The translations under genes and the position numbers were made by a program. 64,000 bases of DNA from a bacterium UBP11_UBA4055. Its GTDB lineage: Bacteria; UBA4055. The notes beneath the pieces are model-generated. The model was not told where the DNA came from. It saw only the letters and a program-made list of their open reading frames with translations, and did not search any database. Positions 14,408 to 31,579 of the stretch are shown one piece after another; position 1 is the first letter of the stretch; every line of letters begins with the position of its first letter. The stretch lies in the NCBI GenBank assembly GCA_002382735.1, contig DFZN01000043.1, positions 35,543-99,542 on the forward strand. Direction: 5' to 3'.

Positions 14408-17400
14408 TTATATAGCCCAGTACTTATTCTGAAAATTCTCTCTTTTTTCAGAGGGCATATTACCTATAAGCTTTTCTGAAAGAAGATTAAGCTTTTCTTC
14501 AAAGAATTCCGCATTTCTTTTCTGAGATCTGTTCCTGAAATAAAAAAATGAGGATAGTATAGGAAAATAGCTGTCGAAAATATATCCCTTTGCGTAATTC
14601 TCTTTTCCCAGTTTCACGGTCGTTTTTAGAGAATAAGCGTAGTTTTCGCTTATCAGGCTTTCGATCACATCGAAATAGTCGTATATATGAGGAGTATCTG
14701 AAAATGATGATTTCAGCTCTCCGATCAAGCCTGTCAGCCGTGAGTTATTCCGGTCACCTTCATAATTGTTGGCCGAATTATTGAAATATTTCATGAGAAG
14801 AAGCATTTTTATATACCTTGCTGAAACCTTCGGGAGCTCCTGTATTATCTTTTCAGTAACTTCTTTTGAGTACATGGAGAAAAGCAGTTCGATCTGACTT
14901 AACAGAACTTTCATTGCCGGAGAGTTTTCAAGTTCGGGATATATCCTCAGAATATTCTTCTGATAGGCGTCATAACCTTCGGGGTCTTTTATTATGTAAT
15001 GGTAATACGCGAGTGACACGATGAATCTTTTTATCTCGTCCTTATTCGCCACTTTGGAAACAAGGTTCATAGCGAAGCGTATGTTGATCTCCACATCGCG
15101 CCACCGTCCGGTACCGATCAGAAAATTTACATATTTGCTGTATATCCTGAAAAGCCCCAGGTAATCCCTGAACCTTTTACCGAGTGTTATGGCTTTCTCG
15201 AATTCTATATCCACTTTGGCGGCACTCATCCTCATATTGCTCATCGCCTCTACCTTATCGGAGATCACCGTGATCAGGTTGTTCCCTATTGTCTTCTTTA
15301 TCGATATCTGTTCTATCGCGGAGAGAAGCTCATATGCTCTCTTCAGCTTCCCGCTCCTGAGCATAAGGTTCGCATAGAGATACTTAAGGGTAAGTTCTTC
15401 GACCTTGTTAATATCGTGCGAATGATTTTTCAGGAGGGTTTCGCAAAGTTCGGCTGCTGTCCTGCTTTTTCTTGTCACGATCAGGTCGAGTATCAGTGCA
15501 AGATTAATGTCCAGAGTCTCTGCCGGATATACGAAATCCGCCTCAAGATATTTGTAAATATGTATCAGTTTCAGATATATTTCTGACTTCTGAATAAGCG
15601 AGGCGTTAGAGAAATACACGCCCACGGCAGAAACGGCTTTAAGAGTCGTATCGTCAAGAACGGCAGAATTCTTTTTCAGTTCATGTTCAATCAGATCTCT
15701 GCATATCTTTATTCTTCCGGTTCTTGTGAGGAATGTCAGCCTCTTGAAAAAAACTTTCAGATACTGGTCGAAATCGCCCGTTCTCTTTAACACGGAAGAA
15801 GCTTTCTTAAGAAATTCCGATTTTTTGTGGAGAGATATCTGGGTTCTGGAAAAACAGATGCTGTCGGATATTATTTGTGCGTATTCCGCGGATCTTTTTG
15901 GTATTTTGATATTTTTAAGAAGCTCTTTATAATATGTAAACGCTTCGTCAAAACTGCCCATGGATATCAGGAGAAGATAGAGATCTTTCAGTATCGAAAC
16001 TCTTGTTTTCGTTGTAATATTGAAACTCTTGTAATAGAATATCAGAAAATTCTTTCTGTCAATGTTCAGGCTATGTTCCCTGCAGTATTCAATTGTTTCC
16101 TTAAGCTGTTTTTTCTTTATTCTGCCTTCCGCCGACGATTTTATCAGGCAATAAGTATATGTTATAAGGCTTCTTTTCTTCTTTGCCCCGTAATACTCAG
16201 TCAGCCTGTCATAAAAACTCTGCCTGTCCTCTTTCGAAACATTTCTGATCACTTTTGTAAAATTTTCGTTCTTGATGAAAAAATATTTATCCCCTCTCTT
16301 GATCCTGAAATCGATAAGGCTCATGCGCTGCAGCTTGGACATTATACTTCTCAGGTCATCAATATCGAATATATGCCTGATCTTGTCATAATTTGCACCT
16401 TCGTCGAATTTACCGGCTATGAAAAGGAATATGAACTTCTCGTTCTGGGACAGATTTGCGAACCTTGCCTGATAGATATCGATGATCTTGGAGTGGTAGC
16501 TTATATTCTCCGGAAATTCAAATTCATACCTGCCCTCTTTGAGATTGAAGTATTTGTGAGATATAAGAAATTCAAGATAGCTTTTGACCAGGAACATATT
16601 GCCGTTGCTTTCTTTCATCACATAAGGGATGATCTTATCGTCAATGTTCTCAGGGGCTGTTCTGAGCAGAAAGGAGATATACTTTTTAATCTCGATTATT
16701 TTAAGATTTTCGATATAAAACCTTTTGGGAGGTATCAGATAGTAAATATCCTCGTATGACTTGAGCCTGCATTCCTGCCTGTCAACGAGATCGATGTCTA
16801 TCGAAAGGATCACAAATAGAGGTGATGTAACCGAAAGGTTAAAGATAAAGGTCATCAGGTCTTTACCTGTATCCTCCAGGTTCGTTATGTCGTCGATCAG
16901 CAGCAGAATGGACTGTTTTGTGTTAAGGTTGTCGAATATTTCCTTTATAACTGTCCTTATTTTGAAAATCAGCTCTCTGTCCTGCACGAATGACCCGTCC
17001 GTATTTATCAGAGCGTTAGCTTTATCGAATATCCCGCTGCTTGTTTCATTCTTGTCCAGAAACCCGATAAGACCGAAGATCAGTTTTCTGAAAAATATAT
17101 TAACGGTACCTTCCTCTTTCTCGACCGTAAAGTAAAGGGACGGAATTCTGTTGAGCTGTGATTTGATATTGAAAGAGTCCATCAGCTGCGTTTTTCCGTT
17201 GCCGTTCTCCGAAATGACCGATATAAGCATTCCCGTTCTCTTTTCGGTTCTCAGACAGAAGTTCAGGTATTCGTCCTGAAGTTCGGTAAGAAGGTTATTC
17301 TTGTCGTAATACTCGTTGTTGAAGATGGTCTCGATCCTCTCCTCTTCCTCTCTTATGTTCATTTCAAGAGCCGTCTCGAGATACAGAATGAGCTGCTGGG

Positions 17401-18172
17401 CGGAATGTATCCTGTCCTCTTTTCTTGCAGCGCAGAGGTCTTTAATGAGATTCTTTACAAAATTTTCCCGGATCGAATTGAACGCTTCTTCCTCACGGAA
17501 TGCCTCTTCAAGTTTTTTTTGTACTATCTCCTTGACAGATTTGCATTCATCGAAGGGGAGCTTGTTTGAGAAAATATAATATATGACCATGCCCAGCGAA
17601 TACAGGTCCACTCTGTAATCAATATCCTTTTTAAGAAGGACTTCAGGTGCTATATATATCAGCGTTCCCCTGACTTTTCCGGAAAAATCCTCCACGAGAT
17701 TAGCGAGTCCGAAATCCATGACCTTTGCTTTAATTCCTTCCTTTTCCTTTATCAGAAAAATGTTGTCGGTCTTGATGTCAAAATGGATTATGTGCCTGTT
17801 ATGGATATAATTAAGACCTCTTGCGATCTGAAGAAGTATCTCCAGTTTTTCCTTGTAAGAAAGTTCCGGAAAAGCAGTTGTAAGGTTTTCCCCCTCAACG
17901 AACTCCATCGTGAAAAAATAGGTATCCGTATCTTTATATACATCAAGATCATATACTTTTATTATGTTCGGGTGTTTGAGCGCGCTTACGAGCTTGAACT
18001 CGTTCTTGAACCTGTCGATCGCCTTGTTAGAAAAGAATTTATCCTTGATGAGCTTCAGCGCGACGACCCTGTTCTCCACAAAATCCTTGACAAGGTAAAC
18101 ATTCCCCATACCGCCCTCTCCGAGAAGACGGATTATCTCATACCTGTCGTTTATTTTGCTTCCGGGCTCCAT
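14408..18172 (-). CDS. Ser/Thr protein kinase fused to a degenerate P-loop NTPase and helical repeats (1254 aa)
   Basis: LGEGGMG, VALK, HFDIKTDN, DFG, YIAPE; ENGNGKT (Walker A-like), LLIDD (Walker B); long alpha-helical C-terminus. Confidence 0.9.
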   Translation of the reverse strand: MEPGSKINDRYEIIRLLGEGGMGNVYLVKDFVENRVVALKLIKDKFFSNKAIDRFKNEFKLVSALKHPNIIKVYDLDVYKDTDTYFFTMEFVEGENLTTAFPELSYKEKLEILLQIARGLNYIHNRHIIHFDIKTDNIFLIKEKEGIKAKVMDFGLANLVEDFSGKVRGTLIYIAPEVLLKKDIDYRVDLYSLGMVIYYIFSNKLPFDECKSVKEIVQKKLEEAFREEEAFNSIRENFVKNLIKDLCAARKEDRIHSAQQLILYLETALEMNIREEEERIETIFNNEYYDKNNLLTELQDEYLNFCLRTEKRTGMLISVISENGNGKTQLMDSFNIKSQLNRIPSLYFTVEKEEGTVNIFFRKLIFGLIGFLDKNETSSGIFDKANALINTDGSFVQDRELIFKIRTVIKEIFDNLNTKQSILLLIDDITNLEDTGKDLMTFIFNLSVTSPLFVILSIDIDLVDRQECRLKSYEDIYYLIPPKRFYIENLKIIEIKKYISFLLRTAPENIDDKIIPYVMKESNGNMFLVKSYLEFLISHKYFNLKEGRYEFEFPENISYHSKIIDIYQARFANLSQNEKFIFLFIAGKFDEGANYDKIRHIFDIDDLRSIMSKLQRMSLIDFRIKRGDKYFFIKNENFTKVIRNVSKEDRQSFYDRLTEYYGAKKKRSLITYTYCLIKSSAEGRIKKKQLKETIEYCREHSLNIDRKNFLIFYYKSFNITTKTRVSILKDLYLLLISMGSFDEAFTYYKELLKNIKIPKRSAEYAQIISDSICFSRTQISLHKKSEFLKKASSVLKRTGDFDQYLKVFFKRLTFLTRTGRIKICRDLIEHELKKNSAVLDDTTLKAVSAVGVYFSNASLIQKSEIYLKLIHIYKYLEADFVYPAETLDINLALILDLIVTRKSRTAAELCETLLKNHSHDINKVEELTLKYLYANLMLRSGKLKRAYELLSAIEQISIKKTIGNNLITVISDKVEAMSNMRMSAAKVDIEFEKAITLGKRFRDYLGLFRIYSKYVNFLIGTGRWRDVEINIRFAMNLVSKVANKDEIKRFIVSLAYYHYIIKDPEGYDAYQKNILRIYPELENSPAMKVLLSQIELLFSMYSKEVTEKIIQELPKVSARYIKMLLLMKYFNNSANNYEGDRNNSRLTGLIGELKSSFSDTPHIYDYFDVIESLISENYAYSLKTTVKLGKENYAKGYIFDSYFPILSSFFYFRNRSQKRNAEFFEEKLNLLSEKLIGNMPSEKRENFQNKYWAI

Positions 18173-18181
18173 ACTGGCCTT

Positions 18182-19441
18182 CTATAATTTATCCGAGATC
18201 GGGTACATATCGATTATCTCTTCCCGTGATTTCCCGAGTATCCCGTACTTTTTCCCGACTTTAACGAACGCTTCGAGAGCCTTTTCGAGATGATGCTTCT
18301 CATGAGCTGCGGATATCTGTGTCCTTATCCTCGCTTTGCCTTTCGGCACTACCGGATAAAAGAATCCTGTCGCATATACGCCTTCCTCATACAGTGTCCT
18401 TGAGAAATCCTGTGAAAGTTTTGCGTTGAAGAGCATGACCGGAACGATCGGGCTTTGTGTTGGGGTTAAAATAAATCCTGCTTCCTGAAGACCGCTTTTC
18501 CAGAATTCCGTATTCTTGTCCAGTTTATCCTTCCTTTCTGACGAATGCATTATCATTTCCATCACCTTAAGCACTCCTCCCACGACCACCGGAGAAATGG
18601 AATTTGAAAAGAGATACGGCCTTGATCTCTGCCTGAGGATGTCGATTATTTCCTGCCTTCCGGAAATGCAGCCTCCTGACGCCCCGCCGAGAGCCTTACC
18701 GAAAGTAGTGCTTATGAGGTCCACCTCGCCCATGACATTCATAAGCTCATGAGTACCTCTTCCGGTCTTACCCATAAAACCTGTGGCGTGAGAATCATCG
18801 ACCATGACGAGAGCTTTATACATTTTTGCCAGCTCGCAGATCTTATCAACTTTCGCCACCGTTCCGTCCATCGAGAACACGCCGTCGGTTACGATAAGTT
18901 TTACCTTATAATCCCTCTCTTCCTCAAGTTTGAGCTGAAGATCGTCCATGTCGTTATTCGCGTATCTGATCTTTTTTGCCTTACAAAGCCTTGTACCGTC
19001 AATTATTGAGGCGTGATTCAGCGCATCGGTGAAGATCGCGCAGTCCTCGTCAAGAAGAGCTTCGAAAACACCGAGATTCGCATCAAAAGCGGACGAGTAA
19101 AGTATTGTGTCGTCCATGCCCAGAAAAAGCGACACCTTGTTTTCGAGCTCGACATGAATATCCTGGGTACCGCAGATGAACCTTACCGACGACATCCCGT
19201 AGCCTCTCGTTGTCAGAATATCCCTGGCCGCGGTTATTACATCAGGATGGTTCGACATGCCGAGATAATTATTCGAGCAGATGTTTACTATACCTTCGGA
19301 TCTTACTCCATTGGGATATTCGACATCGATATCCGCATACTGCGGAGACATTATCTTTCTTTCCTGTTTGTAAAGACTGCCTTCTCTGATCTGCTCAAGC
19401 TGATCAGTGTAGAACTTCTTCATTTCCCTGTCGAATGCCAA
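18182..19441 (-). CDS. kbl: Glycine C-acetyltransferase / alpha-oxoamine synthase, copy with canonical Kbl motifs
   Basis: CSNNYLG, SSVRFICGTQ, DALNHASIIDG.RLCKA, DDSH, TFGKALGG, ARIRTQISAAH. Confidence 0.9.
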   Translation of the reverse strand: MAFDREMKKFYTDQLEQIREGSLYKQERKIMSPQYADIDVEYPNGVRSEGIVNICSNNYLGMSNHPDVITAARDILTTRGYGMSSVRFICGTQDIHVELENKVSLFLGMDDTILYSSAFDANLGVFEALLDEDCAIFTDALNHASIIDGTRLCKAKKIRYANNDMDDLQLKLEEERDYKVKLIVTDGVFSMDGTVAKVDKICELAKMYKALVMVDDSHATGFMGKTGRGTHELMNVMGEVDLISTTFGKALGGASGGCISGRQEIIDILRQRSRPYLFSNSISPVVVGGVLKVMEMIMHSSERKDKLDKNTEFWKSGLQEAGFILTPTQSPIVPVMLFNAKLSQDFSRTLYEEGVYATGFFYPVVPKGKARIRTQISAAHEKHHLEKALEAFVKVGKKYGILGKSREEIIDMYPISDKL

Positions 19442-19512
19442 CTGATACCTCTGCTGATATAACAGCTTTAAGTTTATTATTTATCCGGATCCTCTCGGAT
19501 CCAAGCCCGGCT

Positions 19513-20760
19513 TTACTGGCCGTATTTTGCGATTATTTCCTGCTTTGTCTTTCCGAGTATGTCGAACTTTTTACCGACTTTTATAAAAGCTTCAAGCGCT
19601 TTTTCCAAATGATGCATCTCATGTCCGGCCGATATCTGCGTTCTTATCCTTGCCTGTCCCTGCGGAACTACCGGGAAGAAGAAGCCGATGGCATATATAC
19701 CTTCTTCATACAGTGCTTTTGAGAAGTCCTGGGAAAGTTTTGCGTTGAAAAGCATTACCGGAACGATCGGAGTATCTCCGTCCTTAAGAACAAAACCGGC
19801 TTCAGTGAGACCTTTTCTCCAGAATTCCGTGTTCTTTTCAAGCTTGTCCCTTCTCTCGGTGCTTTTGGAAAGAATGTCGAGAACCGTGTTCACGCCTGAA
19901 ACCACCACTGGAGCTATAGTGTTGGAGAAAAGGTACGGCCTTGCTTTCTGGCGGCACATTTCGACAAGTTCTTTTCTGCCCGATACACATCCGCCCGACG
20001 CTCCGCCGAGTGCTTTTCCGAAAGTGGTGGTAATAATGTCTATCTTGCCCATCACTCCGTATTTTTCGTGAGTTCCTCTGCCTGTTTTGCCGATAAAGCC
20101 TGAAGAATGGGATTCGTCAACAAAAAGCATCGCGTCGTATTTCTCACACAGTGCTGCCATCTCGTCCAGCTTTGCCGTATCTCCGTCCATTGAGAACACT
20201 CCGTCAGTGATGACTACCTTGAGCCTCTTGTCGGCATGAAGCTGAAGTTTTTCTTCAAGATGCGCCATATCGGAATGCTTGAAAGTGTCGTGCATGGCCG
20301 GCGCAAGTCTGATCCCGTCGATTATTGATGCGTGGACCAGCCTGTCGGAGATCATAACATCATCCTTGGTCAGTATAGCCTCGAAAACACCGGCATTCGC
20401 ATCCATGCAGGAAGGGAACAGGATCGTGTCCTCCGTTCCTAAGAATTCGGTGACCTTTCTTTCAAGCTCCTTGTGGATGTCCTGCGTTCCGCAGATGAAA
20501 CGGACCGATGACATGCCGTAGCCTCTTGTGTCAAGACCTTCGTGGGCAGCTTTGATCACATCGGGGTGGCTTGAAAGACCGAGATAGTTGTTCGCGCACA
20601 TGTTGATAACTTTTTTTAGAGCGGATCCCGTGGGGAATTCAACCTCTATGTCGGCTGCCTGAGAAGAGTGAATGTACCTTTCCTGCTTGAATATTCCCTT
20701 TTCCCTGATCTCATCAAGAGAGCCGTTGTATATGTTCCTAACTTTATCACTGTAAGCCAT
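19513..20760 (-). CDS. Alpha-oxoamine synthase (Kbl-like), ACP-linked copy
   Basis: CANNYLG, SSVRFICGTQ, variant DRLVHASIIDG, DESH, TFGKALGG. Confidence 0.9.
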   Translation of the reverse strand: MAYSDKVRNIYNGSLDEIREKGIFKQERYIHSSQAADIEVEFPTGSALKKVINMCANNYLGLSSHPDVIKAAHEGLDTRGYGMSSVRFICGTQDIHKELERKVTEFLGTEDTILFPSCMDANAGVFEAILTKDDVMISDRLVHASIIDGIRLAPAMHDTFKHSDMAHLEEKLQLHADKRLKVVITDGVFSMDGDTAKLDEMAALCEKYDAMLFVDESHSSGFIGKTGRGTHEKYGVMGKIDIITTTFGKALGGASGGCVSGRKELVEMCRQKARPYLFSNTIAPVVVSGVNTVLDILSKSTERRDKLEKNTEFWRKGLTEAGFVLKDGDTPIVPVMLFNAKLSQDFSKALYEEGIYAIGFFFPVVPQGQARIRTQISAGHEMHHLEKALEAFIKVGKKFDILGKTKQEIIAKYGQ

Positions 20761-20770
20761 ATCGGGTCTC

Positions 20771-21016
20771 CTACTTCAAAAATTCATTTACGAGTTTTAC
20801 GATCTTGGTCACGCTGTCGAAAGCTTCCGGAGTAGCTTTGTCGTCAGGTATTGAGATCTTGTATTTGTTCTCGAGGAACCTTTTTAATGATACCATCGAA
20901 AAAGAGTCCACGATGCCGCCTGAAATTAAAGGGGTGTCGTAGGTCAGCACTTCATCTTCGTCTTCGAGATATTCGTTTATTACATACTTCAGAACTACAT
21001 CTTTCATTTCGTCCAT
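20771..21016 (-). CDS. Acyl/aminoacyl carrier protein
   Basis: 81 aa, acidic, GIVDSFSMV phosphopantetheine site, PEAFDSV. Confidence 0.92.
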   Translation of the reverse strand: MDEMKDVVLKYVINEYLEDEDEVLTYDTPLISGGIVDSFSMVSLKRFLENKYKISIPDDKATPEAFDSVTKIVKLVNEFLK

Positions 21017-21054
21017 TTTGCTTCTCCTCCTGTTTTTTTTATTTTTTATGTTTT

Positions 21055-22764
21055 TTATTCGTCATCGAGCGTTGAAGTATCGCCTATGTCCTGACCCCAT
21101 TCCTGAGCCCTGAGCATCCTTCTCATGATCTTGCCGCTTCTCGTTTTAGGCAGCTTTTCTAAGTATTCGATCTCCTGAGGCATGGCGAGAGGAGACAGTT
21201 TTTTCCTGATGAAGTTCATTATCTCAAGCTCAAGGTCTTCATCCGGTTCGAATCCCGGTTTTAAAGTAACGAAAGCCTTAACTACTTCCATATTGACTTC
21301 ATCAGGCTTGGAGACCACCGCTGATTCCGCTACGGCGGGATGCTCGAGAAGCGCCGATTCGACCTCAAACGGGCTGACAAGGTGGCCGGCAGTATTGATG
21401 ACATCGTCGTCCCTGCCCACGAACCAGTAGTATCCGTCCGCGTCAACAGTTGATTTGTCGCCGGGCAGGTACCAGCCGTTGGCGAATTTCTTTTTATATA
21501 TCTCCTCGTTATTCCAGTATGCCCTCATCATAGCCGGCCACCCGGGTCTAAATCCGATCAGTCCGGGCTTGTTCGGTTCGGTGATCGGCTCAAAAGTCTT
21601 CTCGTCAATGACCGCGCCCGTAACGCCGGGGAACACTTTGCCCATCGAGCCGGGTTTGACCTTCATTCCGGGATAGTTGCAGATCATCATCGATCCGGTC
21701 TCGGTCTGCCAGTATGTGTCGTAGAACGGTTTGCCGAACACTCTCTGCGACCAGATGACCGCCTCTGCATTGAGAGGCTCGCCTACGCTCGCGAGATGCC
21801 TGAGCGAGCTCAGGTCGTACTGTTTTACAAGCTCTTCGCCGGCTTTCATCAGTGACCTTATCGCCGTAGGGGCAGAGTACCACATGGTCACTTTGTTCTT
21901 CTGTATGAATTTGTACCAGCTGTCAGCAGAGAAGCCGGCATCGAGAACGCACTGCGTCACCCCGTTCGACCACGCACCGATTATTCCGTATGATGTTCCA
22001 GTGACCCAGCCCGGATCCGCGGTGCACCAGTAAATATCGTCATCCTGCAGGTCAAGGACCCATTTAGCTGTAAGATACTGTGAGATTATCGAATAATGAA
22101 CATGCTTTACGCCTTTCGGCAGCCCGGTCGTTCCTGATGTATAGTGAAGCACCGAGGGCGACTCAGCTTTAGTCGGAAAGATCTCGAATTCGTCTATCCA
22201 TTCAGCTTTTTCAAGATCAAAAGCTTTTTCTCTCTCTTTAAGGGGCTTTAAACCGTCATGGTCGATTATTATTATATGCTCTAAGAACGGTGTTCTTTCA
22301 AGAAGCTTCCTTACTTTGCCGACATGCTTTCTCTGAGTGATTATAGCTTTCGTCTGAGCGTTCTCAAGCCTTACAAAAAGGCTCTCGTCCCCGAATGCGG
22401 AAAAAAGCGGCTGAGCTATTGCGCCTATCTTTAAGACCCCGAGAAATCCGAGATACAGTTCGGGAACTTTGTCCATGAACAAACAGACCCTGTCCTCGCT
22501 CTTTATCCCGATGCTCTTCAGGTAATGCCCTATCGTGTTGGTCGCTTTTCTGATGTCGTCGAATGTGTATCTTTTTTCTTCACCGCCGTGACCCTCCCAG
22601 ATAAGGGCTGTTTTCTGCGCTTTTCCCATTTTGCAGATCCTGTCGGTGCAGTGCCATCCTATGTTGATAACTTCGCCTTCTTTGTAGCCGAGCTCTTCTT
22701 CAGCCGTTTTCCAGCTGAAATCCTTCACTCTTTCTTCGTAGGAACCGATGTTTGACATATACAT
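21055..22764 (-). CDS. AMP-forming acyl-CoA/ACP ligase (acetate-CoA ligase-like)
   Basis: YTSGTTGLPKG, ADPGWVTG, SVGEPL, YWQTETG, GRDDDVI, LPKTRSGKIMRR. Confidence 0.92.
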   Translation of the reverse strand: MYMSNIGSYEERVKDFSWKTAEEELGYKEGEVINIGWHCTDRICKMGKAQKTALIWEGHGGEEKRYTFDDIRKATNTIGHYLKSIGIKSEDRVCLFMDKVPELYLGFLGVLKIGAIAQPLFSAFGDESLFVRLENAQTKAIITQRKHVGKVRKLLERTPFLEHIIIIDHDGLKPLKEREKAFDLEKAEWIDEFEIFPTKAESPSVLHYTSGTTGLPKGVKHVHYSIISQYLTAKWVLDLQDDDIYWCTADPGWVTGTSYGIIGAWSNGVTQCVLDAGFSADSWYKFIQKNKVTMWYSAPTAIRSLMKAGEELVKQYDLSSLRHLASVGEPLNAEAVIWSQRVFGKPFYDTYWQTETGSMMICNYPGMKVKPGSMGKVFPGVTGAVIDEKTFEPITEPNKPGLIGFRPGWPAMMRAYWNNEEIYKKKFANGWYLPGDKSTVDADGYYWFVGRDDDVINTAGHLVSPFEVESALLEHPAVAESAVVSKPDEVNMEVVKAFVTLKPGFEPDEDLELEIMNFIRKKLSPLAMPQEIEYLEKLPKTRSGKIMRRMLRAQEWGQDIGDTSTLDDE

Positions 22765-22813
22765 TTCTCCCTGATTTATTTTAATTATCTGTAAAGTTCG
22801 TCCAAAGAGAATT

Positions 22814-22842
22814 AATTTATGATTTTATTGCGTTTAAATCAA
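22814..22842 (-). promoter_or_regulatory. Possible internal promoter ahead of ligase-ACP-AOS genes
   Basis: Minus strand TTGATT-17 nt-TAAATT in a 110-bp AT-rich gap. Confidence 0.45.
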
Positions 22843-22874
22843 TCAAATTTTTATGTATTTAAGGGACAGTGTTT

Positions 22875-23489
22875 TTACCTTCCCAGATAATATTTAGCCG
22901 GCTCGTTGTCTTTATCCAGAATTATGACACTGCCGAAGATGAGTAGAGCTTCGTCCTTTTCGCCGTTTAAGAATTTACTTTCGGCGAGTATGTTCAAGAA
23001 TACGACATTCGTTGGAAAAATTGACACCATTTTTTCTGCTGTTTTTATTGCGAGATCATATTTTTTCTGCTTCATAAGAGCGACTGCGTACCAGTAATTT
23101 GCGTAATAGTTGTAATGATCTATTTTAAATACCTTTACAGATTGGATTTCGACCTTCTCCCATTCCATTTTAGCTACATTTATCAGATTTATAGTGTTCA
23201 GGACTTCGACTGAGTAGGGATAAATTAACAGAGCTGTTTCAAGATGTTTTTGAGCGTTCGAATAATTTCCGGAAAGATAATATAACCATCCGAGCCTGTA
23301 ATTTACCGTATAGCCTGAGGGATAATCCTTTATAACTTTACCGAGCGCAGAGATCGCCTTATCGTATTTCTGGCCCGTTTCAAATTTTATCGAGTTGTTG
23401 TAAGCCTCTTCCAGCTCTTTCTGCGTCATTTCTGCAACTAGTGATACAGTCGCAATAAAAAGGAACAGAATTAAGGATATTTTCTTCAT
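22875..23489 (-). CDS. Exported TPR protein
   Basis: Signal peptide MKKISLILFLFIATVSLVA; TPRs (YRLGWLYYLSGNY). Confidence 0.85.
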   Translation of the reverse strand: MKKISLILFLFIATVSLVAEMTQKELEEAYNNSIKFETGQKYDKAISALGKVIKDYPSGYTVNYRLGWLYYLSGNYSNAQKHLETALLIYPYSVEVLNTINLINVAKMEWEKVEIQSVKVFKIDHYNYYANYWYAVALMKQKKYDLAIKTAEKMVSIFPTNVVFLNILAESKFLNGEKDEALLIFGSVIILDKDNEPAKYYLGR

Positions 23490-24904
23490 TTTACTCTCCA
23501 GTTGTAGTTAGCCGTTATTGAATTCGTCAGTATGGTGTAGTCCTCAAAATCCGAAAAAGAAACCGTATAGCCCAGTATCCAGTCGCCGAACAGCTTTCTG
23601 AATATTACTCCGGCGATGATGTTGGTTTTAAGCTTTGAATCGTTCGTATTGAGATATCTGCCCTCGCCTGTGTTGACAAGGAATATATCGCCCTTCGAAT
23701 AGCTTGTAAAAATATCATAGTCTTCGCTTCTGAACCCCGCCGTGGCTCCGTAAAGAAATCTCGCGCCCCCTTTGACGATATCAGGTGAGAGCTCCGTAAC
23801 AAGAGTTTCTCTGTCGGAACTAAGCATGTCGGACGCATAATCCGAATCTATATCCTCAACTATATTCACTATGCCGCCAAGGAATACATAACCCAGATTG
23901 ACAGATCCGTCAAATGTAAACTGAAGAGAAGTGAAAGAATCCGTATATGTTTCGTATTTTTCCCCTCTGGGAAGGGGATTTACGACGAATTTGTAATAAT
24001 TGTAATTTATGCCTGAATAATTCACGAATGTGTCGCCACTGAAATATCTGCCTAACCCGAATCTTGCGCCGGCTGAAACTGCGCTCATGTTCTGGATATA
24101 GTCGTTCACGAGAATACTTCCCTTCAGCCCACCGTAAACTGTCAGAGCACGGTTCAGGGTATAATTGTACTGCCCGAAGAACTCGTACTGGCCAATATCG
24201 TCATAGAACAAAAACCCCCGCTCTTTGTTCATAGCAGGATCAATGCCCGTGCCCTGCAAAACGAAATTCGTGTTGAACCTGTGACGGGCTTTTCCGAAAT
24301 TATAGTTGATGTTGAAATTATAGCCGCCCAAAAGAAGCTCGTTACTGCCGTAGTCGTAGAAGGAGAATATTACATCTAAAAACCGCCTGTCCTCATTTAG
24401 CTTTGGAAGCAGAGTGGAGTAAGCCTTTCTGAATTCGTCCGAACCGAAACCGTCGCTTATTGCCTTGCCGTACCAGTCAGCCGTCTTCTGATAATAACCG
24501 GTCTGAGACAGTCCCCATCCCGTGAGAGAGTATATCTGCTTTTTTCTAAAATAATCACTACCCGATCTGAGAAGTTTTTCCGCATACGATGTTTTTCCGA
24601 GCAGCGCGTCAGAATAAATGACTCTGTCCTGATTCAATTCCGAATTGCTGAGCTTAAGAAGTTTATTGGCATATTTATTCGCAGTTTTGATCCCGCCTGA
24701 GTTTATACTCGCGTTGTATATACCTGTCATGGCTCCCGCATTCTCAGGATCGGAATTTTCAGCTTCGTAATAATATTCGAGTGCTTTTAACATATCGCCC
24801 TTAAAATAAAATTCATCGCCTTTTACAAGCAACTGTTCTGACCCTGTTGCCGCAAAAATATTCCCCAAAGCTGATAATAGTACTACAAAGAAGAAACATT
24901 TCAT
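23486..24904 (-). CDS. Exported protein: N-terminal TPRs plus probable outer-membrane beta-barrel
   Basis: Signal peptide, TPR region, then amphipathic strands (YNFNINYNFG, YEFFGQYNYT, WILGYTVSF) and terminal YNW. Confidence 0.65.
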   Translation of the reverse strand: MKCFFFVVLLSALGNIFAATGSEQLLVKGDEFYFKGDMLKALEYYYEAENSDPENAGAMTGIYNASINSGGIKTANKYANKLLKLSNSELNQDRVIYSDALLGKTSYAEKLLRSGSDYFRKKQIYSLTGWGLSQTGYYQKTADWYGKAISDGFGSDEFRKAYSTLLPKLNEDRRFLDVIFSFYDYGSNELLLGGYNFNINYNFGKARHRFNTNFVLQGTGIDPAMNKERGFLFYDDIGQYEFFGQYNYTLNRALTVYGGLKGSILVNDYIQNMSAVSAGARFGLGRYFSGDTFVNYSGINYNYYKFVVNPLPRGEKYETYTDSFTSLQFTFDGSVNLGYVFLGGIVNIVEDIDSDYASDMLSSDRETLVTELSPDIVKGGARFLYGATAGFRSEDYDIFTSYSKGDIFLVNTGEGRYLNTNDSKLKTNIIAGVIFRKLFGDWILGYTVSFSDFEDYTILTNSITANYNWRVK

Positions 24905-26979
24905 ATCTTTGTTATCCTTATCTCTTTCCCGCCGGACATTATACCCACTTCTCTTATGCCTTTTCGCTGACAGAGCTCAGCTTCCGTCCGGGCTGACACC
25001 TTACCGTTCTTCACGATCCTTCCCGTTACCTTTTTGCCGTCATGTTTTGCGTAGAATCCCTTCTGGCTGCTTAGACCGGTTCCGAAAGATTTTATTAAGA
25101 GAGGAATTCTTGAACTTCTAAGCACATTTTCAGGAATATATTCGTTCCATTCTATATCGTCGTCGTCGGAAAACGGGACAGAGGGAAGCGCGAGGAAAAA
25201 ATATCGTAAGGCTGAAGTATAATTCCCGTCGTATTTGAAGAAAACGAACCTGCCTTTATCGGTACCGAAGTACAATCTGCTTCCTTTGCCGTCGGAAAAA
25301 TAATATGTGCCTTCTACTTCCATCCCGACCTTTAATGTCAGATCGGATATTACCCTGCCGTTTTCTGTCACTTTATAGCTGAACTGCTCATCGAGAACGA
25401 ACTGAAGTTTTCTCGAAAGCGTTTTCGAAGTGACGAGCGGAATGACCGTGTCGTTCTTTGAAAGATATTTTGCATCTGTATCCTTTCCGTTGACCTTGAG
25501 AGAGTTGAAGGCGAATTCTATGCCGGGCGTTCCTATCAGATGATTAAGTTGTACCTGAACATGAAGGTGAGGCTCGGGCGAATAACCTGAATTCCCGCAT
25601 TCGGCTATGAGCCGGCCTTTTGTAATCTGGTCGTTCTTTTTGACTCTGACCGAACCCTGTTTCAAATGCGACAGTTCGACATAATATCCCGGATAAACAT
25701 AAATTATGATATAATTCCCCCAGTTGCTGGATTTATCGACCTCGCCTATCTCATTGTCGTCAAGGTCGTCGAACACTTCGACTACCGTACCGTCGGCCGG
25801 AGAGAGTACGGGTTTTCCGAAGCAGAAATAATCCTCTCTTTTTGACCCGTCGCCGGAAAATGTTTTACCGTTCTCCGAAATAACGAAGTCGTACGCATAT
25901 TTCCAGAACCCTTTGTGCGTCCACTCGCCGTCAAATCCCTGATAAACAGTCCATTTACCGGAGAACGGCAGCCTGATCGAAGGCGTGACCCAGTCGAACC
26001 TGTTCGAATAGTTGAGGTGGTCAACGAGCGCCATCTCAGGCTGTTCGAGGCCGGTTGAGTTCATCATCACATATTTCACGCTTCCGAGAACATAGATGTA
26101 TAAGAGCACAGTAAGGTTGAACGGAAGGGTGAATACCGGTATGCCGAAGGAGATCCAGAACACAGATGCGGCGTCAATGATGAAGACCGAGCCGAGTACT
26201 GCCGTCAGGGTCAAGAGGTATGTCCTCTTGGACGGTATCAGGAACATTCCGCCGAGAGCAGCGCCGACGAGTATGAAGTTGAATGAGGATATTTCGGCGA
26301 AAGCGAGCGGGATGCTTCCCTTTAACAGAGACAGGAAAAATATTCCTGCGTAATACGAAGCGACGGCGGAAAAGAATGTAATTCTGGAGTACAGAAGTAT
26401 CGCGAGCAGAAGTATCAGTCCCACGATGTCGTAAGGCATGAATATCAGTATGCCGGCGGCGCGTAGGAGACCCTGTACATATCCGGGCAGAAAGTCGAGG
26501 TTAAAATATTCCTGCTTATAGAATGAGTCGACGATAAGGCTGCTGTATTTACCTGAAGCAAGATATATTATCGTAGCCGAGATCGTGAAAGGGATGTTGA
26601 GCACCGGCAGTTTGAAGTACAGATACAGCGCAGAACTTATGGTATATGTGAGAAGGACGGTAAATATGCTCATTCCGACTGCCAGCAGCATCGAAAGGTA
26701 AGTTACCTTGAATATGAACCCGACAGCGAACCCGGTCAGAAGCGCGTTGTAGGTGAGAAGCTTGTTGACAGGATCATCCTTTTTTATTCCGATGAATCTG
26801 GAGAATAATAGAGCGGTGATCAGCCCGATAATTCCCGTAAGAGCTATATTTCTGTTGAACAGTGTCGCAAAGAAAAGAATGAGGCCGAGCGCCTGATTTC
26901 TTATGAAGAACAGGTTGGAGTAGGCGTGGAGCAGTTCTCGAATGAACTCAGCGGCCTTCGAAGCTCTTTTTTCTTCCAT
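24901..26979 (-). CDS. Urea-transporter-like membrane domain fused to an M23 peptidase domain
   Basis: ~300-aa polytopic N-terminus (YNALLTG, LPVLNIPF, IPVFTLPFN); M23 motifs H..YAYD, SHLKQGS, GNSGYSPEPHLH. Confidence 0.85.
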   Translation of the reverse strand: MEEKRASKAAEFIRELLHAYSNLFFIRNQALGLILFFATLFNRNIALTGIIGLITALLFSRFIGIKKDDPVNKLLTYNALLTGFAVGFIFKVTYLSMLLAVGMSIFTVLLTYTISSALYLYFKLPVLNIPFTISATIIYLASGKYSSLIVDSFYKQEYFNLDFLPGYVQGLLRAAGILIFMPYDIVGLILLLAILLYSRITFFSAVASYYAGIFFLSLLKGSIPLAFAEISSFNFILVGAALGGMFLIPSKRTYLLTLTAVLGSVFIIDAASVFWISFGIPVFTLPFNLTVLLYIYVLGSVKYVMMNSTGLEQPEMALVDHLNYSNRFDWVTPSIRLPFSGKWTVYQGFDGEWTHKGFWKYAYDFVISENGKTFSGDGSKREDYFCFGKPVLSPADGTVVEVFDDLDDNEIGEVDKSSNWGNYIIIYVYPGYYVELSHLKQGSVRVKKNDQITKGRLIAECGNSGYSPEPHLHVQVQLNHLIGTPGIEFAFNSLKVNGKDTDAKYLSKNDTVIPLVTSKTLSRKLQFVLDEQFSYKVTENGRVISDLTLKVGMEVEGTYYFSDGKGSRLYFGTDKGRFVFFKYDGNYTSALRYFFLALPSVPFSDDDDIEWNEYIPENVLRSSRIPLLIKSFGTGLSSQKGFYAKHDGKKVTGRIVKNGKVSARTEAELCQRKGIREVGIMSGGKEIRITKI

Positions 26980-26991
26980 GCTCTCCCGCTG

Positions 26992-28344
26992 TTACAAATT
27001 AAATTTTCTTAGTTTGTCAGGCACGAACTCCGGTCCTGTAATGTCCTCGAGCTTTTCTGCCCGCCTGATCTGCTCAAGCTTTCCGTCCTCCATTATCATC
27101 GCTACTGCCGGACGGTAGCGGATGAACTGCATCCACTGCGTCACATTATATGCGCCCATGGGCGACAGGATTATCCTTGTCCCTTTGGGCAGAGGAGGAA
27201 GAAACGCGCTTTCTGCGACGACATCGATATTCATGCAGAGCGGACCGTACAGTATGCTGTTCTCGTACGCGCCGTGAAGCTCGCGGTCTATCTCGACCTT
27301 GTAGTTGTACCAGGCTGAAGTGTAGAGCAGATTCACGCCGGCGTCGATGATGTAGGACTTCGTCCCGTCGGGCAGGCGCTTGACCGCATCGACGGTTGAG
27401 ATAAGCCAGCCGGCCTCGTCCACTATAGCGCGCCCGGTCTCGAGATACACATCCGGATACTCGTCCGGCGCGAGCTCGTCAAGAAGCGTGTCCGCCACGG
27501 CGTCGATGAAATTCTCGACGGGCTGGACGGCGACTTCGGGCGGAAGATAGGTCCCTTTAAGTTTGTTGTTCGAAGGAAAACCGCCCCCGAAATCGAGGTA
27601 CGATATTGTTATTTCAAATTCATGCTCTATCTTCCGCATCAGCTGCACAACTTTTTTCACTGCCTCTTTGTACGCGTTTGGATCCATCATGAATGTACCT
27701 ATGTGGCAGTGTATCCCCTCGAGGTGCAGATGTTCGCTGTGAGAGATCCTCTTCACAGCGTTGAAGGCGCCGTTGTTCTCGATCGGGAAGCCGAAGCGCG
27801 ACCACTGCGGATAAACTCCCGTGTCCATGTTGACCCTTATGCCGACGGAAACTTTTTTCCCGACTTTTTTTGCGGCTTCCTCCGCCTTGATGATCTCGTC
27901 AAAATTGTCGAGGTTCACCATCGCGCCGTCGGTAAAAGCGGTCACGAGAGAATCCAGCGGCTTATACGGTCCGTTGTAGATTATCCTGTTACCCGGCACG
28001 CCGAGGCTCCTCGCCTTTTCGTACTCGAAGTCGGACACGACCTCGGCAGTCTCACCCTCTTGGTGCAGGATCGAGCATACCGCGCCGAGATAGTTCGTCT
28101 TGTAGGACCAGCTCATCTTCGCTTTCGGGTACTTGCTGGAGAAATATGAATAAATTTTCCTGTACCTTTCCCTTATCACCTTCTCGCTCAGGACGAAAAC
28201 GGGGGATCCGAACTCATCGGTGAACCTGCCTATGGGAATTCCTTCGATGTCCTCCCTGTGGCCTTTGTTGTATGTCACACCGAACTTGTTCATCACTCCG
28301 GCCGACTGTCTTTTTATGTATGGTTTGATGTATTCTTTTTTCAT
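26992..28344 (-). CDS. Fold-type III PLP enzyme (DAP/Orn/Arg decarboxylase family)
   Basis: SYKTN (PLP Lys), HCHIGT, DFGGGF, ETGR, GPLCMNID, GAY. Confidence 0.9.
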   Translation of the reverse strand: MKKEYIKPYIKRQSAGVMNKFGVTYNKGHREDIEGIPIGRFTDEFGSPVFVLSEKVIRERYRKIYSYFSSKYPKAKMSWSYKTNYLGAVCSILHQEGETAEVVSDFEYEKARSLGVPGNRIIYNGPYKPLDSLVTAFTDGAMVNLDNFDEIIKAEEAAKKVGKKVSVGIRVNMDTGVYPQWSRFGFPIENNGAFNAVKRISHSEHLHLEGIHCHIGTFMMDPNAYKEAVKKVVQLMRKIEHEFEITISYLDFGGGFPSNNKLKGTYLPPEVAVQPVENFIDAVADTLLDELAPDEYPDVYLETGRAIVDEAGWLISTVDAVKRLPDGTKSYIIDAGVNLLYTSAWYNYKVEIDRELHGAYENSILYGPLCMNIDVVAESAFLPPLPKGTRIILSPMGAYNVTQWMQFIRYRPAVAMIMEDGKLEQIRRAEKLEDITGPEFVPDKLRKFNL

Positions 28345-29393
28345 TTTTTCACCTCTCCTGATTCGCCGTAAGTGCTTATCTGTTCAAAATCGGATATGTC
28401 TTTTACAAGTTCGTTGGTGTATCTGATCATCAGTTTGCCGCTTTTGTAGTCAGAATGAGTTTCAAACTCCTGACCCGTTAAAAGTTTTACCATTCTCGCA
28501 GGCAGATTTATCCCGCATCCGGCCGGAAAATACACCCATGCAGGGAATCTCGGGTTTATCTCGAGCACATAAATGTCCTGAGTTTTGTTCTCCATGAGCA
28601 CTTCGAACTCGAACCCGCCGCGCCATTTCAGGCCGCTCACGACCTTTTTTGTAGCCTCGATCAGCCGCTCGTTCCTTATGCTGACGGCGTTCCATACCTT
28701 ACCGAGCTTGGTTATTGTCATCTTGCGGATAGCGAAAACGCCCATGTCGTTGCCTTTGCCGTCCCCGCAGCCTATCACATCGTATTCGTCGCCCTGAATG
28801 AACTTCTGGGCTATGATCGGGTAGCCCCATGCGGCCGCGATCTTGATAAAATAACCTTCAGCCTCGCCGGGTGAAGTCGCCTTGAACGCTTCATAGAACG
28901 GGCCTTTGACCATGCAGGGAAAACCGAGCTTCTCTGTGGCCTTGTGCAGGTCGGAAAGTGATGTGCAGCTTATGTATTCCGGTGCTTTCACGCCTATTTT
29001 TTCCGAAAGTTCTTTCAGTTTGAGTTTGTCCCTTAGTCTGAACATCTCCTTTGTGGGTATCAGCATCTTTATGCCCATTTCCACCAGCACCGGCTCGATA
29101 TCCATATAGATCGGAAGTTCGGCGTCTAAAGCTGAGATTATCACATCAAGGTTTTCTTTTTCGTGGATATCCCTGATACGCTCGATAAATGCTTCTTTAC
29201 TGCCTGACGGATATGGCATTATGTAACTTTTGTCTATTATGTGATCAAGATATATTCCAGGTTCAAGAGCGTCGTAGGCAAGACCGATCGCCCTGATCTC
29301 CATCCCGCTTTCCTTAAGCGCACGGCATATTCCGGCACCCGGCCCCGGATTGTCTATCGTATTAATTCCGCTCACCGCGACTGTTATTTTCAT
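28341..29393 (-). CDS. ATP-grasp ligase
   Basis: DKL, PCMVKG, QKFIQGDE, FEFE, LEINPRF. Confidence 0.9.
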   Translation of the reverse strand: MKITVAVSGINTIDNPGPGAGICRALKESGMEIRAIGLAYDALEPGIYLDHIIDKSYIMPYPSGSKEAFIERIRDIHEKENLDVIISALDAELPIYMDIEPVLVEMGIKMLIPTKEMFRLRDKLKLKELSEKIGVKAPEYISCTSLSDLHKATEKLGFPCMVKGPFYEAFKATSPGEAEGYFIKIAAAWGYPIIAQKFIQGDEYDVIGCGDGKGNDMGVFAIRKMTITKLGKVWNAVSIRNERLIEATKKVVSGLKWRGGFEFEVLMENKTQDIYVLEINPRFPAWVYFPAGCGINLPARMVKLLTGQEFETHSDYKSGKLMIRYTNELVKDISDFEQISTYGESGEVKK

Positions 29394-29402
29394 ATTAGCC
29401 GC

Positions 29403-29648
29403 CTAAACAAGAAAATATTTTTTGAGATTTTCGACAAAATCCTGAATATCGACAGTTACTTCATCGTCGGAAGCCTCGAATTCATCCATGATCGCCGACT
29501 TTATCTCATCCTCTTCCTTACCCGCCTTCAGAAGCTCAAGGATCTTAAGCCCGGTCGCGTTAGCTGTGTACGAATGACCCGTCACAGGATCGAAAATGAA
29601 GCCGCTGTCGCTTATTGCAAGTACCGATAATTTGTCTCTGTCCATCAT
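29403..29648 (-). CDS. Stand-alone PqqD/RRE-family protein
   Basis: 81 aa; beta-strands FIFDPVTGHSYTANATGLKILELL then helices EIKSAIMDEFE..EVTVDIQDFVENL, the PqqD wHTH pattern. Confidence 0.85.
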   Translation of the reverse strand: MMDRDKLSVLAISDSGFIFDPVTGHSYTANATGLKILELLKAGKEEDEIKSAIMDEFEASDDEVTVDIQDFVENLKKYFLV

Positions 29649-29740: not shown

Positions 29741-29769
29741 AATATACTAATGAAAATCGGTTTTATCAA
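29741..29769 (-). promoter_or_regulatory. Promoter of the PqqD/ATP-grasp operon
   Basis: Minus strand TTGATA-17 nt-TATATT; ~86-nt leader. Confidence 0.6.
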
Positions 29770-29827: not shown

Positions 29828-30250
29828 TTATTCTTTTATCAGATTCACTGTAAAAATATAATCAGTTTTAATTTCGCACTTTTTATTTTCGGTGTTAGTT
29901 ACGACTAACTTAAAAGCGATGTTTGTAGTCTTCTTTATCTTTATCAGTTCTTTTATCATCGAGATATTGAAGTGCCTAGTCGGTTCTTTGTTAGGATCGA
30001 TAAAAACGGTTCGCTTTAGAATTTCTTTACCATCATCCAAAAGGCAAACATCGATAGTTTTGAGCTTTAAATCCTTTTTATAATTTGTAGTTCTGAATAA
30101 AAAACTCAAAGGGAAAATCGCTTCACCTGTGAAATTTTTGCTGACTTTTGCATTTAACTCATTTACCAAACCAACAATTGTATGTTTGCCACCGATTTCA
30201 CTTCTTATATCGTCACAAACTATCACATCATTTAATTTAATATTTTCCAT
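29828..30250 (-). CDS. Beta-rich hypothetical protein (DUF6941-like), third gene of the TA operon
   Basis: VIVCDDIRSEIGGKHTIVG. The start at 30250 (SD GGAGA) overlaps the antitoxin 3' end by 14 nt. Confidence 0.7.
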   Translation of the reverse strand: MENIKLNDVIVCDDIRSEIGGKHTIVGLVNELNAKVSKNFTGEAIFPLSFLFRTTNYKKDLKLKTIDVCLLDDGKEILKRTVFIDPNKEPTRHFNISMIKELIKIKKTTNIAFKLVVTNTENKKCEIKTDYIFTVNLIKE

Positions 30251-30866
30251 TTTGATCTCCTGCGTTATAATCATTACTGCTTTCTTTTACCATCTTATAT
30301 TTCTGTTCCGTAACTATGTAACCATTTTCGCTAACAGCGATCAATGAAACAGCGGAAGCATTTGAAATCTCCGGACTTGCATATTTATTTCTTTCAACAA
30401 GATCGAACTTCTTCATCGCTGCCTCTTTGAATACAGCATCAGTATATTTTTTATCGAACTTACGGGCGGCTACATAAATGATCCATGGATAACTTCTTAT
30501 AACCCTTAACAGAGTTAATCCAATAGCTGAATAATTCAATCTGCTTTTCCACCTTGAGAGTGTGCGGACAGGCAATCCCAATGAATCTTCAATATCCTTA
30601 AGTTTTATATTCTTCTTATTAAAGAATTCAAGAATATTCTTTATTGAGCTTTGCTCAGATATTTTCTGAGCTTTTTCATATTCATCTGTGTAATTCAGCG
30701 TGAAGTTTATTTCATCACCGCATTTCTTGCATCTCAATATTTTTTCTTCAAACTCAACTATTTCACCGAAAGGCACATACTCTGTCTGCTTTTCAATTAC
30801 AGAAGTAAAACTTTCGTTTCCGCAGTAATTGCATTTGATATTTTTCCCATTCAGCTTCATAATCAT
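30237..30866 (-). CDS. MqsA-like antitoxin: Zn ribbon + XRE HTH + ~70-aa C-terminal extension
   Basis: CNYC...CKKC, LKDIEDSLGLPVRTLSRWKS, LLRVIRSYPW. Confidence 0.8.
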   Translation of the reverse strand: MIMKLNGKNIKCNYCGNESFTSVIEKQTEYVPFGEIVEFEEKILRCKKCGDEINFTLNYTDEYEKAQKISEQSSIKNILEFFNKKNIKLKDIEDSLGLPVRTLSRWKSRLNYSAIGLTLLRVIRSYPWIIYVAARKFDKKYTDAVFKEAAMKKFDLVERNKYASPEISNASAVSLIAVSENGYIVTEQKYKMVKESSNDYNAGDQNGKY

Positions 30867-30874
30867 TCCTTTCT

Positions 30875-31282: not shown

Positions 31283-31294
31283 TTCTTCCCGTTT

Positions 31295-31557: not shown

Positions 31558-31579
31558 GAAAAAGAGAATAAAATAAACC

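Follow-up and report, generated by a model that had tools for sequence, protein, structure and literature searches.

Decarboxylase FigC groups with SbnH, AcsE, MccE, BtrK and diaminopimelate (DAP) decarboxylase in a clade that stands apart from polyamine biosynthesis, and the FigC-like members listed there decarboxylate an amino-acid moiety attached to something larger (PMC7857480). Urea transporters (UTs) of solved structure have both termini on the intracellular side and a long extracellular loop between their halves, and urea is recognized by a Q-V-Y/F-T motif in both half-channels, where helices Pa and Pb supply the Gln and helix 5a the Thr (PMC11589576). In rhodobacterial sphingolipid synthesis, a dedicated ligase loads a dedicated acyl carrier protein (ACP) for an oxoamine synthase, the three being known as the AasR-AcpR-SPT triad (SPT, serine palmitoyltransferase) (PMC9386255). 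Here, we analyzed a 64,000-nucleotide stretch from the bacterium UBP11_UBA4055 (contig DFZN01000043.1, positions 35,543 to 99,542; hereafter the window), in which relatives of these proteins are encoded in one run of genes. Six of them, which we call module A, encode a PqqD-family protein, an ATP-grasp ligase, a pyridoxal phosphate (PLP) decarboxylase, a fusion of a UT-fold channel with an M23 peptidase (UT-M23), an outer-membrane barrel protein (gene 5, or X) and a periplasmic tetratricopeptide repeat (TPR) protein. The other four, module B, encode an AMP-forming ligase, an ACP and two alpha-oxoamine synthases (AOS1 and AOS2). The reading that we favor, with a confidence a little short of even, is that these are two evolutionarily independent modules that became chance neighbors in one Delongbacteria lineage, and that module A would work as an assembly line with its own route of export.

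Using the UT-M23 alignment, we fetched 80 loci from 428 matching species genomes and labeled their open reading frames (ORFs) by the window proteins; a locus was taken as adequately flanked when 5 kb or more of sequence followed the TPR gene (n = 45). Genes for the PqqD, ATP-grasp, decarboxylase and TPR proteins all lie beside UT-M23 in 42 of these 45 loci, and because the same set recurs in this way across many phyla, the association of the six genes of module A is far beyond chance. In fact, five of the 42 loci, from Fibrobacterota, Chitinispirillaceae, Bacteroidota and unclassified metagenome-assembled genomes (MAGs), hold the same six genes in a circularly permuted order (UTM23-X-TPR-PqqD-ATPgrasp-PLPdc). 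In 55 loci a gene fills the slot that separates UT-M23 from the TPR gene. The cassette occurs in over a dozen bacterial phyla, among them Aquificota, Desulfobacterota, Calditrichota, Cloacimonadota, Fibrobacterota, Verrucomicrobiota, Gemmatimonadota, Campylobacterota, Bacteroidota, Cyanobacteriota and Delongbacteria, and among the cultured carriers are Thermodesulfatator indicus, T. autotrophicus and Thermosulfuriphilus ammonigenes. No other conserved neighbors were found around the cassette in the fetched loci; that of Thermodesulfatator is flanked by a divergent rpsA on one side and by an unrelated TetR/RND operon on the other. Module A is apparently a self-contained, conserved, widely transferred and undescribed cassette, and it almost certainly does one specific job.

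Genes for the ACP and AOS follow the cassette in only three of the 45 adequately flanked loci, all of them from close Delongbacteria relatives (L001, L002 and L022). A fourth relative (L020) has the ligase gene about 7 kb off, at the end of the locus, and in two further Delongbacteria loci (L004 and L005) the module B genes do not adjoin the cassette. Moreover, the spacing between cassette and module B differs between loci (110 nt, ~1.9 kb and ~7 kb), and module B genes of 74-90% identity occur in Bacteroidales and Zixibacteria with no cassette gene nearby. The halves fail to co-occur in other genomes, an outcome named beforehand as one that would speak against a single system, and the ten genes thus make up two modules and not the one system that the sequence-only reading had proposed. 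Carrier-protein-based chemistry, which had been counted as part of that export system, goes with the separate module B, to which the ACP, ligase and AOS genes belong. The statement that no characterized pathway holds the full set survives for genes 1-6, which are apparently undescribed, and genes 7-10 resemble the known triad of acyl-ACP synthetase, ACP and oxoamine synthase. Likewise, the idea that a product is made or modified and then exported over both membranes is reasonable for genes 1-6, given their cytoplasmic enzymes, inner-membrane protein, periplasmic TPR protein and outer-membrane barrel, but not for the ten-gene whole.

The UT-M23 protein, whose nearest genome is that of a Candidatus Delongbacteria MAG (92% protein identity), comprises a UT fold (residues 14-297; Pfam UT, 167.6 bits), an M23 domain (~335-490; Peptidase_M23, 50.9 bits) and a beta-rich C-terminal domain (~495-692). 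Its AlphaFold2 (AF2) model (predicted local distance difference test (pLDDT) score of 89.7, predicted template modeling (pTM) score of 0.82) was matched by Foldseek to dvUT (E 1.6e-14, TMt ~0.8), having the two-repeat UT fold with 10 transmembrane (TM) helices, and to M23 domains as well. All 86 sequences compared keep the zinc-binding and catalytic M23 residues H355, D364, H438, H471 and H473. Across the same sequences, K/R residues are enriched in the loops predicted to lie inside and in the linker after the channel (mean K+R of 1.8 in residues 301-313), and the inter-half loop is acidic. From this distribution and the intracellular termini of the solved UT structures, the M23 and C-terminal domains are predicted to be cytoplasmic, a topology that would not place the M23 domain at an extracytoplasmic site with access to the cell wall. 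Of the residues that recognize urea, the Q(Pa) position is variable (E/T/Y/N and others), Q/E(Pb) is replaced by I/V/A/T, and T(5a) is N or S. Kept in the pore are the aromatic/Asn pairs Y77-N78 and F233-N234, together with T284 (T(5b)). The score against NCBIfam urea_trans_yut is 87 bits for a cutoff of 275. Judged by these positions, UT-M23 keeps the channel fold and loses the urea-recognition glutamines.

All six proteins of module A fall under every NCBIfam equivalog cutoff. The PqqD protein scores 44.4 bits against Pfam PqqD (cutoff 23.4) and lies under every NCBIfam PqqD subfamily cutoff; its orthologs in 60 loci are 78-81 residues long, with a strongly conserved N-terminal block (LAI..GF.FDP.TG.S) and a hydrophobic C-terminus. 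As the C-terminus is hydrophobic instead of acidic, a LysW-like carrier was ruled out for this protein. The ATP-grasp fold of gene 2 is certain (Pfam ATP-grasp_3, ATPgrasp_Ter and PylC-like_N), and against NCBIfam PRK12767 the protein scores at most 85 bits, far under the cutoffs. Its best match in the Protein Data Bank (PDB) is 2pn1, a structural-genomics protein of unknown function, and the next is carbamoyl-phosphate synthetase (CPSase). The catalytic motif residues K163, E203, E278, N280 and R282 are invariant in 62 orthologs. In the same orthologs, a motif at residues 8-21 (S-G-I-N-x-x-D-N-P-G-P-G-x-G), which lies outside the usual ATP-grasp signature, is almost invariant, and may be a substrate- or partner-binding loop. 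The decarboxylase (Pfam Orn_Arg_deC_N and Orn_DAP_Arg_deC) is under the equivalog cutoffs of both FslC (214 bits versus 500) and LysA (203 bits versus 298). Its best PDB match is 7kh2, the N-citrylornithine decarboxylase FigC/FslC (190 bits), compared with 146 bits for the best DAP decarboxylase structure and 74-75 bits for BtrK. Invariant in 67 orthologs are K82 (the PLP lysine), H214, G253-255 (the glycine loop), R305 and C370 (of the catalytic loop).

For gene 5, no Pfam family and no PDB sequence match were found, the latter with a profile search included. The protein has a signal-peptide-like N-terminus, and its AF2 model (pLDDT 86.7) consists of TPR-like helices (residues 2-169) followed by a 14-strand beta-barrel, for which Foldseek gave BcsC as the top match, and also OmpG, FadL, PelBC and AlgE. 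In most phyla the same slot holds a protein of 283-307 residues that starts with a signal peptide and ends in an aromatic residue, a few of these short proteins giving weak matches to porin or outer-membrane protein families of Pfam. For the long and short forms we claim the same position and architecture, orthology being not proven. As to the slot itself, the short barrel gene of a Chlamydiales MAG (L046, 5835-6746) sits after the TPR gene and not before it, and three loci (L026, L040 and L061) have no barrel gene between UT-M23 and TPR, with none detected elsewhere in the locus. Gene 6, with orthologs in 69 loci, has an N-terminal hydrophobic signal lacking a lipobox Cys, and gives weak matches to the envelope TPR proteins CpoB/YbgF and to those of BamD type.

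Considered together, these parts suggest how module A might work. In the cytoplasm, the PqqD-like protein would present a peptide or an extended-chain substrate, to which the ATP-grasp ligase would join an amino acid via its side chain, so that the alpha-amino-acid end stays free; candidates are Orn, Lys or DAP, linked through the omega-amine, and Glu or Asp, linked through the omega-carboxyl. The decarboxylase, as a member of the FslC/BtrK/MccE clade, would then strip the alpha-carboxylate to leave a primary-amine appendage. The channel-fused M23 domain, on its predicted cytoplasmic side, would cut the product from its carrier, the product would exit through the altered UT-fold pore, and the periplasmic TPR protein and the TPR-barrel would move it across the outer membrane. 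We infer this assembly line from these parts, and it matches the chemical logic of both FigA/FigC and BtrJ/BtrK; the layout would also fit pathways that depend on a RiPP recognition element (RRE; RiPP, ribosomally made, post-translationally modified peptide) and have a peptidase-exporter fusion. That module A is a new biosynthesis-export machine of this kind, with an amine-bearing product made on a carrier not encoded in the cassette, release and gating by UT-M23, and exit by the TPR-barrel, is a real possibility, though we regard it as less likely than not. Were it true, the UT fold would for the first time have a role other than with urea, and an M23 peptidase would for the first time act in biosynthesis in the cytoplasm.

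Several observations weigh against the two-module, assembly-line reading. The nearest characterized relatives of the ATP-grasp protein activate bicarbonate (CPSase and pyruvate carboxylase) and are not peptide ligases. The cytoplasmic placement of the M23 domain derives from homology and charge bias, and UT-type pores are narrow, such that passage of an amine or amide through UT-M23 is offered as a proposal only. Homology between the long Delongbacteria barrel and the short forms of 283-307 residues is weak (hhalign E 0.012, probability 3.6%). With no terminator between modules A and B, their co-transcription is possible in the window. Two loci (L025, 10004-12100, and L016, 9926-12079) have UT-M23 without other cassette genes in the available flanks. 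Finally, no conserved precursor or scaffold peptide ORF turned up in 80 loci, whether upstream of PqqD or elsewhere up to 1.5 kb from the cassette. For this, we took all ORFs of at least 12 residues in the 500 nt upstream of PqqD (60 loci), and compared every ORF of 10-90 residues within 1.5 kb of the cassette (80 loci) by short-query BLAST. Matches among the small ORFs were confined to close relatives and look like shadow frames, and none was called at the Thermodesulfatator locus; a hypervariable or distant precursor peptide gene is possible. A 28-residue ORF with a TTG start, which overlaps the start of PqqD in the window, was treated as a chance occurrence, having no counterpart elsewhere. 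The genes next to the orphan UT-M23 of L025 and L016 are of housekeeping type and bear no relation to the cassette (an aminotransferase, LptF/G, a radical SAM protein and CobU), whereas other Persephonella genomes hold the full cassette.

Alternatively, module A could modify an envelope polymer. A diamino acid would be put on a carboxylate of an envelope precursor (the peptidoglycan stem peptide or another anionic polymer) and decarboxylated to a pendant diamine. The stem peptide would be recognized by the M23 domain, and instead of an export route the TPR protein and barrel would be envelope partners or tethers. Such a pathway would need no precursor peptide gene and would give the M23 domain a natural role, as M23 domains normally act on peptidoglycan peptides; the kinship of the decarboxylase with DAP decarboxylase, the weak matches of gene 6 to CpoB/YbgF and BamD-type proteins, and the annotation of the cassette lineages as diderm phyla are all in keeping with it. 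Even so, the UT-fold channel would be left without a role, the M23 domain is predicted to be cytoplasmic, and the cassette has no linked Mur, Pbp or flippase gene. PqqD proteins, moreover, are known as chaperones for ribosomal peptides, and on the whole we consider envelope modification unlikely. Similarly improbable, in our view, is a small non-peptidic amide (a siderophore-like, polyamine-amide or ureido compound), for which the ATP-grasp enzyme would replace the synthetase of NRPS-independent siderophore (NIS) type and the channel and barrel would serve in export or import. The best match of the decarboxylase to FslC/FigC, the order of ligation before decarboxylation in FigA/FigC, the grouping of the ATP-grasp protein with CPSase-like enzymes, and the suitability of a narrow UT pore for a small polar product all speak for it. 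However, neither the invariant M23 peptidase nor the PqqD protein would have a part in it, the surroundings of the cassette conserve no TonB-dependent receptor and no feature of iron regulation, and the barrel is not a TonB-type receptor with 22 strands.

A single ten-gene pathway, whether general or confined to this Delongbacteria lineage, would have the ligase, ACP and AOS feed the ATP-grasp/decarboxylase half. The genes do indeed lie side by side in one direction, no terminator-like site separates them, and their adjacency is kept in L001, L002 and L022 (with the ligase gene ~7 kb off in L020), and the combination of ACP, ATP-grasp and PLP decarboxylase recalls BtrI, BtrJ and BtrK of butirosin. 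Yet synteny has already largely refuted it, since module B stands beside the cassette in so few loci (3 of 45), at a spacing that varies from 110 nt through ~1.9 kb to ~7 kb, with L004 and L005 lacking an adjoining module B; its genes, at 74-90% identity, occur in other phyla apart from module A and together with their own phosphopantetheinyl transferase (PPTase), and the co-directional run extends into unrelated genes for a kinase, Hsp20 and Lon. We hold this pathway to be very unlikely. Less still can be said for a cassette of ordinary parts, in which a true urea channel, a periplasmic wall hydrolase and a LysA decarboxylase would cluster to no purpose. Database names of the homologs ("urea transporter", "peptidoglycan DD-metalloendopeptidase" and "diaminopimelate decarboxylase") would be explained by it, but all six proteins are under the NCBIfam equivalog cutoffs, UT-M23 has lost the residues that recognize urea, its M23 domain is predicted to be cytoplasmic, and six-gene synteny extends across phyla with the permuted order included, and we give it hardly any credence.

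Of a defense system there was little sign, as PADLOC gave no match for five of the six module A proteins, and we rejected this candidate; the TPR protein of gene 6 had one weak match (PDC-M71B, E 3.6e-4, 17.4 bits). No riboswitch was matched in Rfam upstream of the cassette, either in the window or in 12 loci. Our literature search for the combination of urea transporter, M23, ATP-grasp, PqqD and decarboxylase returned nothing relevant to module A, and a described combination of RRE, ATP-grasp and PLP decarboxylase was also not found. Module A is made of parts of known folds, with a likely logic that has known relatives, and no curated family that covers it was found.

Module B is a separate and widespread unit that is also poorly understood. 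Its ligase passes the cutoff of the NCBIfam acetate--CoA ligase PRK04319 (762 bits versus 729), matches an acetyl-CoA synthetase structure (PDB ID: 9g79; 568 bits), and is 74-77% identical to the ligases of the Bacteroidales and Zixibacteria loci. The ACP, in which the serine of the VDSF motif is a plausible site for phosphopantetheine, has at least 8000 relatives, many at 85-93% identity, in Bacteroidales, Zixibacteria and Delongbacteria, and is 86-90% identical to the ACPs of one Bacteroidales (L083) and two Zixibacteria (L085 and L086) loci. In those three loci the gene order is PPTase-ligase-ACP-AOS, with no cassette gene nearby; a PPTase gene is not present in the window. The best NCBIfam match of the ACP is ACP_for_OlsHI, but as this is under the cutoff (62 bits versus 130) and no GH3-like gene is present, the OlsH/OlsI ornithine-lipid pathway was set aside. 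Both synthases have the class-II aminotransferase fold, exceed the cutoff of 493 bits for glycine C-acetyltransferase (TIGR01822; 572 bits for AOS1 and 585 bits for AOS2), stay at 230-328 bits with SPT models whose cutoffs are 500-670, and match Kbl structures best (for AOS1, PDB ID: 7bxp, 466 bits). AOS1 is 84-86% identical to the AOS after the ACP in L083 and L085. AOS2 is 61% identical to AOS1, and its presence after AOS1 is confined to the close relatives (L001, L002 and L022). Since the AcsA and Kbl cutoffs are passed and the SPT cutoffs failed, module B probably charges its own ACP with a short acyl group for condensation with glycine or an amino acid like it, rather than forming a sphingoid base. 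In L085 and L086 (8639-12655), the trio is preceded by an SDR epimerase-like gene and the PPTase gene, and is followed by a 906-residue Pat-like protein (CoA-binding, ATP-grasp_5 and GNAT domains) and then by a second, distant AOS (33-36% identity), which hints at a larger conserved module B.

The features of the span are collected in Table 1. As the sequence-only reading had it, all ten ORFs are present on the minus strand at 18182-29648, with the order, sizes and junctions described earlier. The tight packing of genes 1-6 was likewise confirmed, with three 4-nt overlaps (28341-28344, 24901-24904 and 23486-23489) and gaps of 9 and 12 nt, and a 110-nt gap separates gene 6 from the ligase gene. 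Pfam and NCBIfam bore out the domain families that had been named, the refinement being that gene 5 has no Pfam match and is TPR-like plus barrel by its model. G+C is ~40-50% in this part of the window.

Table 1. Coordinates of the module A and module B genes and of the upstream promoter match within the window.
Feature	Size (aa)	Positions	Strand	Basis and remarks
Module A gene 1, PqqD-family protein	81	29403-29648	-	Pfam PqqD; RRE-type peptide-binding fold
Module A gene 2, ATP-grasp ligase	350	28341-29393	-	Pfam; CPSase-like/PRK12767 group
Module A gene 3, alanine-racemase-fold PLP decarboxylase	450	26992-28344	-	Pfam, NCBIfam; closest to FslC/FigC and DAP decarboxylase
Module A gene 4, UT-fold channel + M23, inner membrane		24901-26979	-	Pfam, AF2, Foldseek
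Module A gene 5 (X), secreted TPR-like + 14-strand outer-membrane barrel	472	23486-24904	-	AF2, Foldseek
Module A gene 6, periplasmic TPR protein	204	22875-23489	-	Several TPR Pfam families
Module B gene 1, AMP-forming ligase, AcsA-type	569	21055-22764	-	NCBIfam PRK04319
Module B gene 2, stand-alone acyl carrier protein	81	20771-21016	-	NCBIfam; VDSF serine motif
Module B gene 3, alpha-oxoamine synthase AOS1, Kbl-type	415	19513-20760	-	TIGR01822
Module B gene 4, alpha-oxoamine synthase AOS2, Kbl-type	419	18182-19441	-	TIGR01822; lineage-specific paralog
Sigma-70-like promoter match 5' of the PqqD gene		29741-29769	-	TTGATA-17-TATATT, 10/12 positions; weak evidence

Sigma-70-like matches occur in the region at background frequency (20 versus 17 +/- 3.9 in shuffled sequence), and the one upstream of PqqD is at most a weak candidate for the single promoter of the sequence-only reading; no terminator-like sites were found on the minus strand of the whole span. 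Beyond AOS2, the co-directional run goes on into genes for a 1254-residue Ser/Thr kinase, Hsp20 and Lon, and because these are unrelated, co-direction alone does not delimit a unit here. The 1254-residue protein (14408-18172, minus strand), which begins 9 nt after AOS2, carries its Ser/Thr kinase domain at the N-terminus, ahead of a long helical tail; it also follows AOS2 in L001, L002 and L022, and its PADLOC matches span the kinase domain only. On the other side, directly upstream of the PqqD gene, is a low-GC island (29828-43451) with a GC content of 0.30-0.36 compared with 0.45-0.51 for the cassette. It encodes DUF6941 and DUF4365 proteins, an ImmA/IrrE M78 peptidase followed by DUF4411, a small kinase-like ORF, a TPR protein, a 934-residue ORF without a family and a Fic/DOC protein, and looks like an inserted mobile or defense-type island. 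The only Rfam match in the window is a tRNA gene (48304-48389, plus strand).

The cassette is kept intact across many phyla, even under circular permutation, without a curated family or a paper having been found for it. It unites parts that are not known to cooperate, namely an RRE-type chaperone, an ATP-grasp enzyme, a decarboxylase of the tethered-amino-acid kind and a channel-peptidase fusion, and it is small enough for heterologous expression. Its elucidation could uncover a new pathway for a natural product or for envelope modification, together with a new use of two well-studied folds. Moreover, splitting off the ligase-ACP-Kbl module averts the misleading annotation of a ten-gene pathway.

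Among known systems, the FslA/FslC (FigA/FigC) route to rhizoferrin shares the logic proposed for module A, that is, ligation by the side chain and then alpha-decarboxylation. There, however, the ligase is an NIS synthetase instead of an ATP-grasp enzyme, and the citrate/iron context of that route is absent from module A, which has a PqqD protein, an M23 domain and a UT-fold channel. The butirosin proteins BtrI (ACP), BtrJ (ATP-grasp) and BtrK are alike in pairing an ATP-grasp enzyme with an alanine-racemase-fold decarboxylase, and BtrK, which acts on a tethered glutamyl group, is a detectable relative of the module A decarboxylase; the butirosin carrier is an ACP, while module A conserves no ACP (3 of 45 loci) and has a PqqD-type protein instead. 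With RRE-dependent RiPP or scaffold pathways, module A shares a discrete PqqD-fold protein beside its enzymes and a peptidase fused to a membrane protein. Those pathways have a precursor, and none was found for module A. Similarly, peptidase-containing exporters combine a C39 peptidase with an ABC transporter, whereas module A has M23 with a UT-fold channel.

Compared with the UT/SLC14 channels (dvUT, UT-A and UT-B), UT-M23 shares the fold, but the recognition Gln and Thr are replaced and ~390 extra residues (the M23 and beta-rich domains) follow the channel. Gene 5 resembles the BcsC, PelB/C and AlgK/AlgE exporters in having a periplasmic TPR and a barrel, and is accompanied by a separate TPR protein. 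Exporter barrels of the BcsC, PelB and AlgE type have 16-18 strands, whereas that of gene 5 is predicted to have 14 and shows no sequence-level family match; these systems also need an inner-membrane synthase, and neither a glycosyltransferase nor a synthase travels with the cassette. While module B scores as AcsA and Kbl and lies under all SPT cutoffs, the AasR-AcpR-SPT triad is the closest described architecture to it, with an AMP-forming ligase, a small ACP and an AOS side by side.

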